From the IMG/VR virus record IMGVR_UViG_2579778784_000011: a stretch of 4,393 nucleotides of DNA, one strand, 5' to 3'. Position 1 is the stretch's first letter, and each line of letters starts with the position of its first letter. Made by a program: the position numbers and the translations under genes. Below, in pieces: positions 1-4,393 of the stretch. Source of the DNA: a virus (taxonomy: Duplodnaviria; Heunggongvirae; Uroviricota; Caudoviricetes). The notes under the pieces are model-generated. The model did not search any database. It was not told the origin of the DNA and saw nothing but the letters and a program-made list of their open reading frames with translations.

Positions 1-1734
1 GCACGCAACGCTGAAGCCGCCTCTCAGAGCGCAGCGGCAGCAAAGAAATCAGAAACAGCAGCGGCATCGTCCAGGAATGCGGCGAAAACATCAGAGACGA
101 ATGCAGGTAACAGCGCGAAAGCGGCAGCTTCTTCAAAAACAGCCGCACAAAACGCAGCAACAGCGGCAGAACGTTCAGAGACAAATGCCCGTGCGTCAGA
201 AGAAGCCTCCGCAGACAGTGAAGAGGCTTCCCGCCGTAATGCAGAGTCAGCCGCTGAAAATGCCGGAGTCGCCACCACAAAAGCGCGGGAGGCCGCAGCA
301 GACGCAACAAAGGCCGGGCAGAAAAAGGATGAGGCTCTGTCGGCAGCGACACGGGCTGAAAAGGCGGCAGACCGCGCAGAAGTCGCAGCGGAAGTGACTG
401 CAGAGCCCTATGCGAATATAGTGCCGCCGCTGCCTGATGTGTGGATACCGTTTAACGATTCACTGGATATGATTGCGGGTTTTTCTCCGGGCTATAAAAA
501 AATAGCTATTGGTGACGATGTGGTTCAGGTCGCCAGTGATAAACAGGTTAATTTCAGTCGCGCATCAACGGCAACATATATCAACAAATCTGGCGAACTG
601 AAAACGGCGGAAATTAATGAGCCGCGATTTGAGTGTGATGGCCTGCTTATTGAGGGACAAAGAACGAACTACATGCTCAATTCGGAAAGTCCAGCCAGCT
701 GGGGGAAGTCATCAAACATGGATGTGCCCGAAACCGGGACGGATAGTTTTGGTTTTACTTATGGAAAGTTTGTCTGCAACGATTCTCTGGTTGGGCAAAC
801 TTCGGCTATTAATATGGCATCAATTGCTGCAACAAAGTCAGTTGATGTCTCAGGCGATAACAAGTACGTGACAACCTCATGCCGTTTTAAAACAGAACGA
901 CAGGTAAGGTTACGTATACGGTTTGATAAGTATGATGGTAGTGCAACAACTTTTCTTGGCGATGCGTACATTGATACGCAAACGCTTGAAATTAATATGA
1001 CAGGTGGTGCTGCCGGCAGAATTACGGCACGAGTCAGGAAGGATAAGACCACAGGCTGGATTTTTGCAGAGGCAACGATTCAGGCAATTGATGGTGAGTT
1101 AAAAATAGGCTCTCAGATACAGTATTCTCCTGAGCAGGGTGGGGCAACAGTATCTGGTGACTATATTTATCTTGCCACCCCACAAGTAGAGAATGGGCCG
1201 TGTGTATCATCATTTATTATTTCAGGAGGCAGCGCAACGACAAGAGCCAGTGATTTGGTTAGTATCCCCACCAGAAATAATCTTTATAAGTTACCATTTA
1301 CTTTTTTACTTGAGATTCATAAAAACTGGGATATTGCACCAAACGCCGCACCCCGCGTGTGGGATATAGCAGCAGCCAATACCGGGCAATTAGCAATTGC
1401 AGCAATCAACAGAGGTAGTGGTAAGTTATATATGAGTCTGTCAAACCCTTCAGGCTCGTATGTTAATAGCGCAGCGACAGATGTATTTGCAGAGAAAACC
1501 ACATTTGGATGTATTGCAAAAGCTGATGGTCACTTTCATGTGGTGACAAATGGTAAAGCGGTTAATGAAGTTTATTGTGAATATAATGGCGTGACCGCTG
1601 ATAAAAATATCCGATTTGGAGGGCAGACGAATACTGGAGAACGACATCTGTTTGGCCATATTCGCAATTTCCGCATATGGCATAAAGAAAAGCAATTGCA
1701 GCAATCAACAGAGGTAGTGGTAAGTTATATATGA
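1..1734 (+). CDS. side tail fibre protein (Stf-like), 5'-partial at window edge; 3' end frameshifted by a tandem duplication
   Basis: Frame 1 is open from nt 1 with no stop until 1732-1734, so the gene enters the window in progress and the GTG at 394 in the ORF track is internal. The first ~130 codons are an Ala/Ser/Thr/Glu/Lys-rich low-complexity shaft (e.g. AAKTSETNAGNSAKAAASSKTAAQNAATAAERSETNARASEEA), as in lambdoid Stf-type side tail fibres. A less GC-rich C-terminal region follows. The last 14 codons before the stop lie in copy 2 of the 299-bp duplication and are read out of phase. Confidence 0.8.
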   Translation, partial: ARNAEAASQSAAAAKKSETAAASSRNAAKTSETNAGNSAKAAASSKTAAQNAATAAERSETNARASEEASADSEEASRRNAESAAENAGVATTKAREAAADATKAGQKKDEALSAATRAEKAADRAEVAAEVTAEPYANIVPPLPDVWIPFNDSLDMIAGFSPGYKKIAIGDDVVQVASDKQVNFSRASTATYINKSGELKTAEINEPRFECDGLLIEGQRTNYMLNSESPASWGKSSNMDVPETGTDSFGFTYGKFVCNDSLVGQTSAINMASIAATKSVDVSGDNKYVTTSCRFKTERQVRLRIRFDKYDGSATTFLGDAYIDTQTLEINMTGGAAGRITARVRKDKTTGWIFAEATIQAIDGELKIGSQIQYSPEQGGATVSGDYIYLATPQVENGPCVSSFIISGGSATTRASDLVSIPTRNNLYKLPFTFLLEIHKNWDIAPNAAPRVWDIAAANTGQLAIAAINRGSGKLYMSLSNPSGSYVNSAATDVFAEKTTFGCIAKADGHFHVVTNGKAVNEVYCEYNGVTADKNIRFGGQTNTGERHLFGHIRNFRIWHKEKQLQQSTEVVVSYI

Positions 1735-1989
1735 GTCTGTCAAACCCTTCAGGCTCGTATGTTAATAGCGCAGCGACAGATGTATTTGCAGAGAAAACCA
1801 CATTTGGATGTATTGCAAAAGCTGATGGTCACTTTCATGTGGTGACAAATGGTAAAGCGGTTAATGAAGTTTATTGTGAATATAATGGCGTGACCGCTGA
1901 TAAAAATATCCGATTTGGAGGGCAGACGAATACTGGAGAACGACATCTGTTTGGCCATATTCGCAATTTCCGCATATGGCATAAAGAAT
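1392..1989. repeat. perfect direct tandem duplication, 2 x 299 bp (unit 1392-1689, junction base A at 1690, copy 1691-1988)
   Basis: Base-by-base comparison: 1392-1689 is identical to 1691-1988 over 298 bp. The first difference is 1690 (A) versus 1989 (T). Confidence 0.97.
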
Positions 1990-2296: not shown

Positions 2297-2618
2297 AAGG
2301 AGGAAATAATGGATATAAGCCCCTTACTTCATGCACTTTGTGCTGTATCTTGGCTGGGCGGAAGATGAAGACCTCCAGAATAAACTGTTAGTTGATGAAA
2401 TTGGTTTCACCTACACAGAAACAGGGGTAACAGAAGAGGGAGAACCTGTCTGTATCCGGAATGATGGTTATTTTGTCAACATTCGCATTCTTGATGACTT
2501 GTTTGATGTTTCTGTATTCTCTGATTATGTCGTGGAGCTGGAAACACCGCTTCGGGAATGGAGCTGAAAGGAGGAAATAATGGATATAAGCCCCTTACTT
2601 CATGCACTTTGTGCTGTG
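2077..2618. repeat. perfect direct tandem duplication, 2 x 271 bp (unit 2077-2346, junction base A at 2347, copy 2348-2617)
   Basis: Base-by-base comparison: 2077-2346 is identical to 2348-2617 over 270 bp. Position 2347 is A where the base after copy 2 (2618) is G. Confidence 0.97.
2331..2567 (+). CDS. chimeric duplicate ORF created by the 271-bp duplication; probably not an independent gene
   Basis: MHFVLY, from the start region of the downstream gene, is fused in frame to residues 21-92 of the 2018-2296 product. No Shine-Dalgarno precedes its ATG. The strong RBS+ATG at 2297-2311 instead opens a 19-codon ORF ending at 2363-2365. Confidence 0.3.
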   Translation: MHFVLYLGWAEDEDLQNKLLVDEIGFTYTETGVTEEGEPVCIRNDGYFVNIRILDDLFDVSVFSDYVVELETPLREWS

Positions 2619-2868
2619 GCTGCGCAGATACTGGTTGGTCTTTTTTACCGGAAACTGGGCTTACGGAGCGATAGCCGGTTGTACGTTCTTCATTGCGCGT
2701 GAACATACCCAGGCAGAATATCGCTGGATTGAAATGTTCGGGCATGGCAAGCGAATGAATATGCCGTGGTGGGGCGGTTTTGATCCGCGTGCTTGGGATG
2801 TGGCAAGCCTGATGGATTTTGCTGTGCCGGTGGTGGCGTGTCTGCTGATCTGGATGTTGATCCGTTAA
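2602..2868 (+). CDS. hypothetical small membrane protein (88 aa, two predicted transmembrane segments); start uncertain
   Basis: Open frame with enterobacterial-like codon choice (CTG, GTG, CCG, GCG frequent). Two hydrophobic stretches long enough to span a membrane (WLVFFTGNWAYGAIAGCTFFIA and VASLMDFAVPVVACLLIWMLI), with Arg-Arg before the first. No Shine-Dalgarno before ATG 2602; a strong AAGGAGG-N5-ATG lies at 2568-2582 in a different frame. Confidence 0.55.
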   Translation: MHFVLWLRRYWLVFFTGNWAYGAIAGCTFFIAREHTQAEYRWIEMFGHGKRMNMPWWGGFDPRAWDVASLMDFAVPVVACLLIWMLIR

Positions 2869-2919
2869 ATATAAAAAGTAAAAAGCCGCAGTAACTTGTC
2901 ATGATAGGATACTGCGGCT
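2869..2919 (-). terminator. candidate intrinsic terminator for dinI (hairpin plus U-tract on the minus strand), possibly bidirectional
   Basis: Inverted repeat AGCCGCAGTA (2884-2893) / TACTGCGGCT (2910-2919): a 10-bp stem with a 16-nt loop. On the minus strand the stem is followed by UUUUACUUUUUAUAU (complement of 2869-2883), about 65 nt past the dinI stop. The loop is long for a canonical terminator. Confidence 0.45.
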
Positions 2920-2985
2920 GGCTGGTTAACTTTCGATAGTGCGAGTATTGAATGATTTCCAGCCGTTACTGATTTTACGTGCTAA

Positions 2986-3234
2986 TTAGTGAACAAACCA
3001 CTCGTCAGCAGACTCCCAGGTATCTTTCAGAGTTTCCTGAACAAAAGTTTTAGCTGAATCTTTATCGGCGGTGCGCGTAACAGAAAGGCCATCGTTGCTG
3101 GTGGCTTTTACGATCACCTCTACATCGTCATAACGTTTACTGATGCGTCGGGTTAATTCTTCCTTTAACGCATCCACAGCACCGTTTGGCATTTTAGTCA
3201 TTTTTTCTTTGGCTATGCAGATCTCAATACGCAT
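2986..3234 (-). CDS. dinI: DinI-family DNA-damage-inducible protein (82 aa)
   Basis: The translation [82 protein letters not shown] matches my memory of E. coli DinI at many positions (MRIE..IAK, GA.DAL, EL.RRI, LSV, QET, TWESAD.WFV). It is preceded by an AGAGGG Shine-Dalgarno and two LexA boxes. Not verified by search. Confidence 0.9.
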
Positions 3235-3249
3235 AAAAGTCCCTCTATA

Positions 3250-3265
3250 CTGTGTTTGTATACAG
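3250..3265 (-). promoter_or_regulatory. LexA box (SOS operator), promoter-proximal, overlapping the likely transcription start of dinI
   Basis: CTGTGTTTGTATACAG on the + strand matches the CTGT-N8-ACAG core of the enterobacterial LexA consensus TACTGTATATATATACAGTA, with flanking TA...TG. It lies 16-31 nt upstream of the dinI ATG. Confidence 0.75.
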
Positions 3266-3270
3266 TGTTA

Positions 3271-3299
3271 TTTTTAACTGTATGGATAAACAGTGTCAA
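3271..3299 (-). promoter_or_regulatory. candidate sigma70 promoter of dinI (-35 TTGACA at 3294-3299, -10 TAAAAA/AAAAAT near 3270-3276, minus-strand sense)
   Basis: Minus-strand sequence is cTTGACA-ctgtttatccatacagt-TAAAAAt: a perfect -35 hexamer, a 17-18 bp spacer and an A/T-rich -10 (4/6 match to TATAAT). The -35 hexamer overlaps the integrase stop codon (3296-3298). Confidence 0.5.
3278..3293 (-). promoter_or_regulatory. second LexA box, occupying the -35/-10 spacer of the dinI promoter
   Basis: CTGTATGGATAAACAG (CTGT-N8-ACAG), 12 bp from the first box and directly abutting the TTGACA -35 element. Confidence 0.75.
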
Positions 3300-4393
3300 G
3301 AGGTCTTATTTCTGCTCCTTTGGAGCTCTTCAAAACGATTATGTAAAGATTTCGGATACAGTTCGGTATATACCTGCCATAGCACGTTTAATGAACGATG
3401 CCCTGTAACCTGAGCGACTTCCTCAATACTAAAACCAGCCTCAAATAAGCGACTTGCCCCTTCTCTACGCAAATCATGGTATCGCAGATCTTTAATACCT
3501 AATTTGCTTCTTACCCTCTGAAATCCTGCAGTAACAGAAGTGCTGTTATATGGAAAAATGAATTCCGATTTTTTGGGCTGTCGTTGGACGATATCCCAGG
3601 CTTCCCCAAGCAAGGCTACTTTCATGTGGTTGCCTTCCTTTTTGCGTGGATCTTTCCTGTCTCTTACGAGTATAGATTTTTGTTCCTGGTCGAGATCTTC
3701 CCATCGTAACCGGCATACTTCTCCGATCCGCATACAGGACCACACAGAAAATTTGAGGATATCAACGAACGGAATTTTTGAGCATTTATGAGTAGATCGT
3801 TGTTGAAGGCCTTCAATGAGCATGTCCAGTTCATCAGATGCTGGTCTACGATTACGACGGTTTGATTTACCAATCAAACCAAGTTTAAGTAGATATGGGC
3901 GAGCGCTTTTCGCCGGGTTTGATGTGTAATTAATTCCGTATACAGGTTTGGCCGCATCCAGAACACTGCCAAGATAACTAACATCGTGGCTGACTGTTGC
4001 TGGACCTGCACCAGCGTTGTTTCTTAGCCTGCAATGTTCAATTACGTCATTTTCTGTCAGTTCAGATAGTTTGATCGCGGAGATGTCACTATCCATAAGC
4101 AGTTCCAGCACATATCTTTTAGTACGGCCTGCTTTACCTCCGGCATTTGGGTCATTTAAATATTTGTGTAGTAAGTCACGGACTGTAAGTCCGTCAACTG
4201 CATTTGATGATGGAATGCCATATAGATCTAATTCCATCACTTTCTGTGTTCCCCATGTTTTGGCATGAGCATGTTTAGGGAATGTTTTGCTTTCCCTGTA
4301 AGTGATAACACCTTTTTCTTTGATAATCACATTACAGCGATAGCGTGGTGTGCCATCGGATTTTAGTCGTTTCTCTATGTTATAGTACGCCAT
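3296..4393 (-). CDS. int: phage integrase, tyrosine recombinase family (365 aa); ATG at window edge, apparently complete
   Basis: C-terminal catalytic-domain signature in order: Arg in MRIGEVCRLRWEDL, Lys in KKEGNHMKVAL, HDLRREGASRL (His-x-x-Arg), GHRSLNVLWQVYTEL (His/Trp and the presumptive catalytic Tyr). Size is typical of lambda-like integrases, and it sits next to a tail module and a moron region. Start codon is at 4391-4393; an upstream extension beyond the window cannot be excluded. Confidence 0.9.
   Translation of the reverse strand: MAYYNIEKRLKSDGTPRYRCNVIIKEKGVITYRESKTFPKHAHAKTWGTQKVMELDLYGIPSSNAVDGLTVRDLLHKYLNDPNAGGKAGRTKRYVLELLMDSDISAIKLSELTENDVIEHCRLRNNAGAGPATVSHDVSYLGSVLDAAKPVYGINYTSNPAKSARPYLLKLGLIGKSNRRNRRPASDELDMLIEGLQQRSTHKCSKIPFVDILKFSVWSCMRIGEVCRLRWEDLDQEQKSILVRDRKDPRKKEGNHMKVALLGEAWDIVQRQPKKSEFIFPYNSTSVTAGFQRVRSKLGIKDLRYHDLRREGASRLFEAGFSIEEVAQVTGHRSLNVLWQVYTELYPKSLHNRFEELQRSRNKTS

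Follow-up and report, generated by a model that had tools for sequence, protein, structure and literature searches.

Two putative LexA operators in the promoter of a dinI-like gene located downstream of a prophage integrase gene

Introduction

Prophage-borne homologs of dinI that respond to DNA damage have been described in several systems. The dinI-gfoA/gftA-irsA operons of Gifsy-1, -2, and -3 are LexA-controlled (Lemire et al. 2011, PMC3121763), and induction of the Gifsy dinI homolog by DNA damage was demonstrated by use of a tagged protein and promoter replacement (PMC3121763) as well as by transcriptomics (PMC8072944). Deletion of the Gifsy dinI homologs had no measurable effect on induction (PMC3121763), and a role of a dinI-like gene in prophage behavior is thus hypothetical. 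In the Shiga toxin phage VT1-Sakai, the record of H0001 (DinI; GenBank AP000400) annotates a 29-bp "putative promoter" and a proximal "LexA protein, putative SOS box." Coliphage 186 carries Tum, a LexA-controlled unit that includes a DinI-like domain. DinI, LexA, UmuD, and the lambda-type repressors share one groove on RecA filaments (PMC9926225), and an effect of additional DinI on prophage induction has already been the subject of speculation (PMC8456039).

Here we analyze a stretch of 4,393 nucleotides of Caudoviricetes DNA (IMG/VR record IMGVR_UViG_2579778784_000011), referred to as the window, in which a dinI-like gene follows an integrase gene. SOS-controlled prophage dinI has already been annotated (AP000400) and studied (Gifsy), and the observation is largely ordinary in this respect. 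The distal of two putative LexA operators is the only part that appears not to have been annotated before.

Results

Gene order and identity of the DinI-like protein

The integrase gene int and the dinI-like gene are separated by a gap of 61 bp (3235-3295), and a scan detected no hairpin terminator between them. The preliminary description of this DNA assumed convergent int transcription, which does not apply: both genes are on the minus strand, so that int is transcribed in tandem with dinI and the issue is one of read-through or occlusion. By contrast, its observation of a perfect TTGACA hexamer overlapping the int stop codon was correct, with the int TGA (3298-3296) positioned inside the -35 hexamer of the dinI-like promoter (Table 1). 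The integrase belongs to a lambdoid prophage inserted beside dusA. The matching locus in E. coli 20Ec-P-124 adjoins dusA, with 100% identity over a 551-nt query (2870-3420) and 99.0% identity over 2569-4393.

Table 1. Coordinates of genes and putative regulatory elements in the window
Feature	Position	Strand	Basis
int, tyrosine integrase gene (365 aa)	3296-4393	minus	ORF list; Pfam Phage_integrase E=1.1e-20
-35 hexamer TTGACA	3299-3294	minus	sequence; promoter scan; annotated in mEp460 and VT1-Sakai
Distal LexA box CACTGTTTATCCATACAGTT (putative)	3276-3295, 16-mer core 3278-3293	minus	pattern match; heterology index 5.77
-10 hexamer TAAAAA, 17-bp spacing	3276-3271	minus	sequence; kept as TAAA(A/T)(A/T) at 17 bp in relatives
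Alternative -10 AAAAAT, 18-bp spacing	3275-3270	minus	choice of promoter scan
Proximal LexA box CACTGTATACAAACACAGTA (putative)	3248-3267, 16-mer core 3250-3265	minus	pattern match; heterology index 3.91
Ribosome-binding site AGAGGG (within AGAGGGA; core GAGGG 3245-3241)	3246-3241	minus	sequence
dinI-like gene (82 aa)	2986-3234	minus	ORF list; Pfam PF06183
First hairpin, stem GGCUGG/CCAGCC	2964-2920	minus	fold z=-3.95; alignments; covariation
Second hairpin, 10-bp stem 2919-2910 with 2893-2884, and U-rich tail 2883-2871	2919-2871	minus	fold

The assignment of the small gene to the DinI family, made earlier from the sequence alone, is borne out by profile searches. The product is a bare DinI domain that matches Pfam PF06183 (DinI) over profile positions 1-63 of 63 (E=1.2e-19; 70.8 bits vs a cut-off of 24.2) and PDB 1ghh/7ywa at E=8e-13, and it shares 46% identity with K-12 DinI. 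The RecA-contact residues of DinI are L13, L21, W71, W77, and F78 in a hydrophobic pocket and E24, E69, and D76 in an acidic patch (PMC9926225). Based on an alignment to K-12 DinI, these correspond to M15, L23, W73, W79, and F80 and to E26, D71, and E78, so that all 8 positions are either identical or conservatively replaced. [quoted passage not shown] Its score of 72.5 bits against the NCBIfam equivalog NF007893 is below the cut-off of 111, which indicates a DinI-like paralog rather than the chromosomal ortholog.

Two putative LexA boxes on the promoter elements

The pattern CTGTNNNNNNNNACAG matches exactly twice in the whole window, at 3250-3265 and 3278-3293. As recognized in the preliminary description, these two CTGT-N8-ACAG palindromes are in the gap between int and dinI, with 12 bp (3266-3277) between them. 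In shuffled versions of the window, the mean number of matches was 0.07, and none of 200 shuffles contained two. For the matrix scoring suggested earlier, we used a Berg-von Hippel heterology matrix derived from 18 E. coli SOS boxes (Table 4 of PMC3009722). Both boxes (3.91 and 5.77) fall inside the range of these 18 proven operators (0.27-9.29; 0.58-12.8 upon leave-one-out scoring), on a scale that is not comparable in absolute value with published indices because the matrix draws on 18 sites of a single paper and is not the original matrix of Lewis et al. The next best 20-mer in the window has an index of 14.9, and an index of 5.77 or better is expected by chance at approximately 7e-8 per 20-mer. 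Both boxes agree with the LexA consensus in core and flanks alike. The index of the distal box is comparable to those of the recA, lexA, and uvrD operators in the same matrix (median among relatives 5.8). A heterology scan of int, the dusA junction, and neighboring DNA detected no further LexA site scoring 12.8 or better, so that int itself is without a LexA box. The sole match in a literature search with the box sequences was a primer for int deletion in PMC6328086.

The promoter scan reported 10 of 12 hexamer matches. The -10 hexamer TAAAAA matches at only four of six positions, and the 29-bp promoter annotated in the mEp460 and VT1-Sakai records implies the corresponding 17-bp spacer. As described earlier, one box fills the spacer and the other covers the expected start: the distal 16-mer occupies the 17-nt spacer (3293-3277), and the proximal 20-mer (3267-3248) extends over the region in which the start is predicted, 5-8 nt past the -10 hexamer, and over the early 5' UTR. 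The centers of the boxes are 28 bp apart, with 8 bp between the 20-mers. The ribosome-binding site is located 6 nt before the ATG, and its purine-rich GG core is retained in relatives.

Conservation of the module and its genomic contexts

Relatives were gathered from homologous proteins with their encoding contigs and from IMG/VR, which yielded 39 distinct upstream variants from E. coli, Shigella, Salmonella, Enterobacter, and Citrobacter. The order -35, box, -10, box, ribosome-binding site is present in 38 of the 39. Across all variants, CTG and CAG are fixed in the boxes and the inner bases drift; in the distal box, CTG and CAG are invariant in all five genera and none of the 10 inner bases is. 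Heterology indices among relatives range from 3.7 to 9.5 for the distal and from 0.8 to 9.0 for the proximal box, with the distal one stronger in a prfC-linked E. coli variant (3.7 vs 8.4 proximal). Spacing between box centers varies from 26 to 29 bp. A single box is present in Klebsiella P18-100 and Klebsiella Kp4884-1, and Citrobacter retains one box, the distal. Such close relatives with one box (Klebsiella P18-100, Citrobacter) indicate that the distal box is not indispensable.

Homology between phages is limited to approximately 2912-3302. TTGACA marks the upstream edge of the conserved module, with no conservation upstream of TTGAC among the 39 variants. The module is found in Stx1, Stx2, cdtI, and mEp460 phages with differing integrases and upstream contexts, which points to a host factor rather than to a phage-specific repressor. 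In various prophages the unit adjoins host genes, an att site, or either of two unrelated integrases; in most contexts, host genes or an att site take the place of int upstream of the two-box promoter. The second of the integrases, from Enterobacter (22% identity over 96 aa), also ends at the TGA in TTGACA. With its own promoter, its own transcript end, and homology edges at its boundaries, the unit from the -35 hexamer to the dinI stop codon has the character of a moron. It is positioned downstream of int here and at the tail-fiber end in many other lambdoid prophages. The gene is carried by many Stx1 and Stx2 phages. Of 5426 complete E. coli genomes, 3185 yielded a match to the 551-bp query along at least part of its length, and a single genome could hold as many as 8 matches.

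A two-hairpin element in the 3' UTR

[quoted passage not shown] The loop of the first hairpin is nearly invariant and contains a 21-nt core, CAUUCAAUACUCGCACUAUCG (2954-2934). Covariation supports this hairpin, with 86% of cells paired and compensatory changes in four of eight pairs, a level reached in none of 500 shuffles. The second hairpin and its U-rich tail likely serve the dinI-like transcript as its intrinsic terminator. At this site, all 93 distinct relatives are predicted to have a hairpin of 8 bp or more, and the U tail is found in only about one-third of these. An automated terminator scan returned nothing because the loop comprises 16 nt; folding reveals both hairpin and U tail. 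Rfam searches of the whole window and of the 3' UTR alone gave only noise, and we found no description of the two-hairpin element in the literature searched.

Phage lambda has the element as well (around position 24232), as do HK633-type phages, in which it directly follows int, and a remnant next to ykgJ in K-12. A K-12 copy is located near position 304286. The "attP" label given to it in HK633 was considered as a general explanation and set aside: the label derives from resemblance to a prophage remnant of K-12, and phages with unrelated integrases also carry the element, which in lambda is far from attP. The inserted dinI moron separates int from the two-hairpin element. Units without dinI have this element as well, and the terminator of the moron may thus be borrowed.

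Comparison with known systems

The closest annotated relative is VT1-Sakai H0001, a DinI with 96% identity, in which TTGACA, the distal palindrome, TAAAAA, the proximal palindrome, and the ribosome-binding site follow in the same order. That record marks one SOS box, and the distal one falls within the annotated promoter without a label of its own. Both boxes are weaker in VT1-Sakai (9.5 and 8.5, vs 5.77 and 3.91 in the window) and are 29 bp apart instead of 28. In place of an integrase, the VT1-Sakai module faces the yehV att site, and it is followed by a ykgJ-like gene.

The Gifsy systems share with the window a prophage dinI homolog behind a promoter with a LexA box. However, Gifsy-2 DinI (77 aa) is only 42% identical, and its gene has one box, which overlaps the -10 and the start, compared with two boxes here. 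The Gifsy operon is located elsewhere in the phage, after the replication genes, and carries an antirepressor that triggers induction, whereas the gene in the window is monocistronic without an antirepressor. Similarly, Tum consists of an antirepressor half fused to a DinI half, and the antirepressor domain is missing from the protein studied here. The analogy drawn earlier to Tum and to Gifsy-type antirepressor operons is therefore not upheld by a bare DinI domain followed by no ORF before the terminator hairpin. P2/186-like prophages have a LexA-controlled pair in which antirepressor and DinI are split, c0943 of CFT073 being an example. In this P2-like prophage of CFT073, a small ORF precedes DinI and two overlapping boxes are 15 bp apart; the window has no such partner ORF.

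K-12 chromosomal dinI belongs to the same family, retains the C-terminal TWESAD(D/E)WF helix, and is LexA-repressed. It differs in its single box, ACCTGTATAAATAACCAGTA, over the -10, and in its 3' end, where a short and simple terminator takes the place of the conserved pair of hairpins. Promoters with multiple LexA boxes, as seen here, are known from lexA, recN, Salmonella dinI, and colicin genes. In Salmonella, the boxes are spaced by 21 bp in lexA, 18 and 22 bp in recN, and 23 bp in dinI (Table 1 of PMC8072944).

In the literature searched, there was no report of LexA binding or SOS induction for the E. coli dinI subfamily of the window. Transcriptome papers on EHEC and STEC covered chromosomal dinI only. 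CFT073 c0943, which is reported to be co-regulated with SOS genes, was rejected as expression evidence because it encodes a P2/186-type DinI outside this subfamily, as was an EHEC radioresistance preprint, which concerns chromosomal dinI.

Discussion

Taken together, the anatomy, operator quality, and conservation of the 61-bp spacer make it very likely that it serves as a sigma-70 promoter, repressed by LexA at two operators, that drives a self-contained dinI moron. We infer that in an undamaged cell one LexA dimer would be bound in the -35/-10 spacer, where it would block the binding of RNA polymerase. A second dimer over the predicted start and the early transcribed region would block open-complex formation or promoter escape. 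With each dimer blocking a step, the promoter would fire only when both sites are empty. Compared with a single box, two boxes would be expected to keep basal expression low and to make the response to falling LexA steeper and somewhat later. Upon DNA damage, RecA-stimulated self-cleavage of LexA would free the promoter, and a transcript of approximately 390 nt, coding only for the DinI-like protein, would end at the second hairpin and its U-tract. The RecA groove that this protein would bind is one also used by LexA, UmuD, and lambda-type repressors. The preliminary description went further in predicting cooperative repression, which we find unsupported: the spacing of 28 bp, and of 26-29 bp in relatives, differs from the 18-23 bp of the Salmonella promoters, and its variability argues against a phase-dependent contact between the two dimers.

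It is unlikely that the proximal box is the sole working operator and that the distal palindrome is kept for spacer geometry or by recent common descent. Such a single-operator promoter would agree with the VT1-Sakai record, which marks the proximal site alone, with the single boxes of K-12 dinI, Gifsy-2 dinI, and the two Klebsiella loci, and with the weakness of both boxes in the VT1-Sakai-type variant (indices 8.5-9.5). Citrobacter also has one box only, in that case the distal. However, promoter spacers normally vary freely, yet in the distal box neither CTG nor CAG changes across the 39 variants of five genera. Moreover, the distal index (median 5.8) equals those of the proven recA, lexA, and uvrD operators, and the prfC-linked variant has the stronger box at the distal site.

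Two readings unrelated to repression of dinI initiation were also considered. The LexA sites could act mainly as a roadblock to transcripts from int, defining where int mRNA ends in lysogens and permitting read-through only during the SOS response. The co-directional arrangement of int and dinI without an intervening hairpin terminator is compatible with this idea, as is the position of the int stop inside the -35 hexamer, shared with the unrelated Enterobacter integrase. We nevertheless regard a roadblock as very unlikely, since the boxes are conserved in most contexts without int upstream and are placed exactly on promoter elements, as expected of a repressor of initiation. Finally, it is extremely improbable that the palindromes arose by chance or bind another protein (a phage repressor or recombination factor, for example). 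The chance probability of about 7e-8 per position for each site, the match to the LexA consensus in flanks and core, the occurrence of the module in phages with different integrases and upstream contexts, and the lack of further such sites near int or att all speak against this reading.

DinR is cut from the 3' UTR of Klebsiella dinI. By analogy, an SOS-gated transcript from the two-operator promoter might deliver more than DinI, namely a LexA-controlled regulatory RNA derived from the 3' UTR, or a sib-like processing site that governs the stability of the int and dinI messages. Separately, the multicopy matches (up to 8 per genome) might restrain RecA-mediated repressor cleavage in polylysogens in a dosage-dependent manner. 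We consider these possibilities speculative and rather unlikely.

In conclusion, the two-operator design is conserved and separates the prophage subfamily of the window from chromosomal and Gifsy dinI, a modest addition to what is known. The locus offers a clean test case but no new principle. If LexA indeed holds this promoter, each such prophage adds an SOS-inducible RecA-filament binder to its host. Because DinI, LexA, UmuD, and lambda-type repressors share the RecA groove, additional DinI could alter the threshold at which, or the time when, prophages are induced and Shiga toxin is released, as well as the level of SOS mutagenesis.

Results

The window covers the right-hand end of a lambdoid prophage (see the table of features). 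Its segment 2870-3420 has 100% identity to those E. coli chromosomes whose integrase adjoins dusA, and 96.9-98.7% identity to phage mEp460 and relatives. Among 5426 complete E. coli genomes, this 551-bp query was matched at least partly in 3185, with at most eight matches per genome, and at least 80% of it was present in 641. The dinI-like gene also occurs in many Stx1-, Stx2-, and cdt-converting phages. Two perfect tandem duplications, each with a 1-nt spacer, were observed in the tail-fibre and downstream ORFs. Positions 1300-2700 (1401 nt) map to only 830 nt in the best-matching complete E. coli genomes; both duplications are therefore absent there, and their presence in the window probably reflects an assembly artefact or else a rare variant.

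Features of the prophage segment, in window coordinates
Feature	Position	Strand	Remark
Tail-fibre genes		plus	
Tandem duplication	1392-1689 / 1691-1988		298 nt
Tandem duplication	2077-2346 / 2348-2617		270 nt
Two-hairpin 3' element	2871-2978	minus	conserved 3' UTR
Second hairpin	2919-2884	minus	stable; U tail after it in the window
First hairpin	2964-2920	minus	stem GGCUGG/CCAGCC; nearly invariant loop holding CAUUCAAUACUCGCACUAUCG
DinI-family gene	2986-3234	minus	82 aa
Proximal LexA-type palindrome	3250-3265		CTGT-N8-ACAG
Predicted transcription start	3266-3263	minus	5-8 nt past -10
-10 element	3276-3271	minus	TAAAAA
Distal LexA-type palindrome	3278-3293		CTGT-N8-ACAG
-35 element	3299-3294	minus	TTGACA
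Integrase stop codon	3298-3296	minus	TGA
Tyrosine integrase (int)	3296-4393	minus	365 aa; ATG at the window's very last base

A preliminary description of this locus had placed two CTGT-N8-ACAG operators, 12 bp apart, in a 61-bp gap between int and dinI. Both distances are correct, and the two palindromes are the only exact matches in the window; dinucleotide-preserving shuffles contained a mean of 0.07 matches, and two matches in none of 200. Both sites were scored by a Berg-von Hippel heterology index trained on 18 E. coli SOS boxes (Table 4 of PMC3009722), in which lower values are better; the values are off the original scale of Lewis et al., and their ranking among proven sites is what matters. 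The proximal 20-mer, CACTGTATACAAACACAGTA, has an index of 3.91 and the distal 20-mer, CACTGTTTATCCATACAGTT, one of 5.77, where the training sites range from 0.27 to 9.29 (0.58-12.8 in leave-one-out scoring) and the next best of 8748 window positions reaches 14.9. At the base composition of the window, the chance of an index of 5.77 or better is about 7e-8 per position. Further LexA-quality sites were not found near int or the dusA junction.

On the gene strand, TTGACA is followed by a 17-nt spacer, TAAAAA, the proximal palindrome, GAGGGA, and ATG. The arrangement described earlier is borne out: the integrase stop codon lies inside TTGACA, the distal palindrome takes up 16 of the 17 spacer nucleotides, and the predicted start falls within the proximal 20-mer. 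A consensus scan returned TTGACA, an 18-bp spacer, and AAAAAT (10/12 matches), and the 29-bp promoter annotated in the mEp460 and VT1-Sakai records is the 17-bp version, TTGACA-N17-TAAAAA. We prefer the latter because relatives keep TAAA(A/T)(A/T) at 17 bp.

Conservation was assessed in 80 IMG/VR loci with 98-100% identical DinI, together with loci of homologues that are 67-77% identical (E. coli, Salmonella, Enterobacter, and Citrobacter). Of the 39 distinct 85-nt upstream sequences, 38 carry a pair of sites that reach an index of 9.5 or better, with medians of 5.8 (distal) and 3.9 (proximal). The alignment shows no variation in either outer triplet of the distal box (CTG, CAG) or in the proximal CAG; every one of the ten inner columns of the distal box varies, and there is no conservation upstream of TTGAC. 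The inner sequence differs by lineage (TTTATCCATA, TTTATTTATA, GTTATCCATA, ATTGTTTATA, and TATAAATAAC). From centre to centre, the boxes are 28 bp apart in 28 variants, 29 bp in 5, 27 bp in 3, and 26 bp in 2. Fixed CTG/CAG, drifting inner bases, and a lack of conservation upstream of TTGAC are what selection for LexA recognition would leave, as opposed to recent common descent alone. Outside this group, the box is single and lies over -10 in K-12 chromosomal dinI (46% identity); in Gifsy-2 dinI (42%) and in dinI of Klebsiella phage Kp4884-1 (51%), one strong box covers -10 and the start; Klebsiella P18-100 (68%) has the proximal box only, and Yersinia YeP1 has none, its gene being located behind another ORF. 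The two-operator promoter is thus a hallmark of a single prophage subfamily of 82-aa DinI-like genes.

Phage matches without the shared integrase span query positions 43/45 to 433, that is, window positions 2912-3302. Upstream of TTGACA the sequence varies with context, comprising the dusA-type integrase, host genes (such as prfC or btsS/yehU), or the VT1-Sakai att site. In an Enterobacter locus (L106, 2400-2520), a 427-aa integrase with an Arm-DNA-bind_3 domain ends at a TGA inside the TTGACA of a two-box dinI-like promoter; this integrase is essentially unrelated to that of the window (only 22% identity over 96 aa). The overlap of -35 and integrase stop thus recurs and is not peculiar to the phage of the window. 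In the loci compared it appears as a recurring junction, and we saw no evidence for a separate function of the overlap. Between att site and dinI promoter, BP-4795 (L112, 100-170) and VT1-Sakai (L117, about 1080-1130) carry three to four tandem 11-bp repeats, GATGCCCCATT, which may be integrase arm-type sites.

The assignment of the 82-aa protein to the DinI family was upheld by Pfam DinI (70.8 bits; cut-off 24.2) and by PDB DinI structures (1ghh and 7ywa, E=8e-13). It scores below the cut-off of the NCBIfam equivalog for chromosomal DinI (72.5 versus 111 bits), and PGAP for this reason names it 'DinI-like family protein'. The residues of DinI that contact RecA in the cryo-EM structure (L13, L21, W71, W77, F78, E24, E69, and D76; PMC9926225) correspond in pairwise alignment to M15, L23, W73, W79, F80, E26, D71, and E78, and it is therefore reasonable to infer that the protein binds the RecA filament groove.

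Between genera, conservation is higher in the 3' UTR of dinI than in its coding region. Across 58 diverse copies, pairing in the first stem amounts to 86%, compensatory changes affect four of eight pairs, and all 500 shuffles score lower. The second hairpin forms in 93/93 distinct copies, most with the loop CUUGCAUAC, and a U tail follows in only about one-third. No Rfam family matched the element, and its core sequence is absent from the searchable literature. At least 120 IMG/VR contigs contain the exact 21-mer of the core. Of 108 usable copies, 65 had no upstream DinI-like gene when tested for a simple C-terminal motif; this figure is an overestimate, as at least one of those groups has a more diverged DinI-like ORF.

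The element is widespread in lambdoid phages and is not restricted to dinI loci. It lies downstream of ea31 in phage lambda (L239, about 24232, leftward strand) and 80 nt downstream of int in HK633 (L240, 1501-1585), whose record marks it as attP because of its similarity to K-12. In the ecpE-ykgJ spacer of K-12 MG1655 (L241, about 304290-304480), a decayed dinI-like pseudogene is followed by the element (about 304286) and ykgJ, an order that mirrors H0001-H0002 (dinI, ykgJ-like) of VT1-Sakai and suggests that K-12 ykgJ is located in a prophage remnant. PGAP annotates the plus strand of the element as a 'capsid protein' pseudogene. The dinI stop lies a few bases ahead of the conserved 5' edge of the element; thus, the dinI moron (promoter and coding sequence) appears to be an insertion that separates int from an element which already formed the 3' end of leftward transcripts and which faces the convergent tail-fibre genes. 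The element may be a terminator/insulator, a processing site, or a 3'-UTR-derived RNA, the last modelled on DinR of Klebsiella, which is such an RNA (PMC10907235).

Discussion

Judged from sequence, the tandem LexA boxes are genuine, conserved sites of operator quality in the correct position. LexA very probably represses the promoter of the DinI-like gene, and it is likely that both boxes contribute. In the most likely mechanism, LexA would repress a monocistronic DinI-like moron through both operators; the two sites would be occupied independently on one promoter, sufficient for tighter, steeper control, and the transcript would end at the hairpin and U-tract at 2919-2871.

The cooperative repression proposed earlier was a guess, and true cooperativity between the boxes is unlikely: boxes in Salmonella SOS promoters are 18-23 bp apart (lexA 21 bp, recN 18 and 22 bp, dinI 23 bp; PMC8072944); here the gap between the two 20-mers is 8 bp, and the spacing of the boxes shifts by 3 bp from relative to relative. 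Nor is int transcription convergent on this promoter, as had been stated, since int and dinI lie on the same strand, in tandem. Read-through from int into dinI, occlusion, or a LexA roadblock is conceivable, but int is not the reason for the boxes because the two-box promoter is equally conserved without int upstream. The likeness drawn to coliphage 186 Tum and Gifsy-type antirepressor operons fails on its defining feature, as an antirepressor domain or partner ORF is absent before the predicted transcript end.

Two further arrangements were observed among relatives. A P2/186-like prophage of E. coli CFT073 (L118, 32612-33105) has a pair of overlapping LexA boxes at a spacing of 15 bp (indices 4.3 and 8.8) ahead of a 62-aa ORF and then a 77-aa DinI-family gene, which looks like the split tum of PSP3 and Fels-2. 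In Salmonella (L102 and L103, 2750-5204), a gene for a colicin/pyocin-type bacteriocin (Cloacin and Pyocin_S domains) comes after the dinI-like gene and 3' element, in the same orientation; immediately ahead of the bacteriocin gene is a LexA-like half-conserved box of its own, TGCTGTATATACATCCACCA.

Experiments have established that LexA controls the prophage dinI homologues of Gifsy phages (PMC3121763), and these homologues are included in the Salmonella SOS regulon (PMC8072944). Upstream of VT1-Sakai H0001, whose DinI is 96% identical, the record (AP000400) annotates a 'putative promoter of H0001 and H0002 genes' and a 'LexA protein putative SOS box', the counterpart of the proximal box; the distal box is unmarked inside the annotated promoter. 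The mEp460 record annotates the promoter and no more. In the searchable literature, subscription journals being outside its coverage, neither the second operator nor binding of LexA to this E. coli subfamily was found to be described.

It has been suggested that phage DinI might limit induction of Stx phages (PMC8456039). LexA, UmuD, and lambda CI occupy the same RecA groove as DinI (PMC9926225), hence the idea that extra DinI modulates cleavage reactions. Tandem LexA boxes on a prophage dinI are ordinary for the field; the finding is known in kind and largely in instance, and the conserved distal operator is a small addition.
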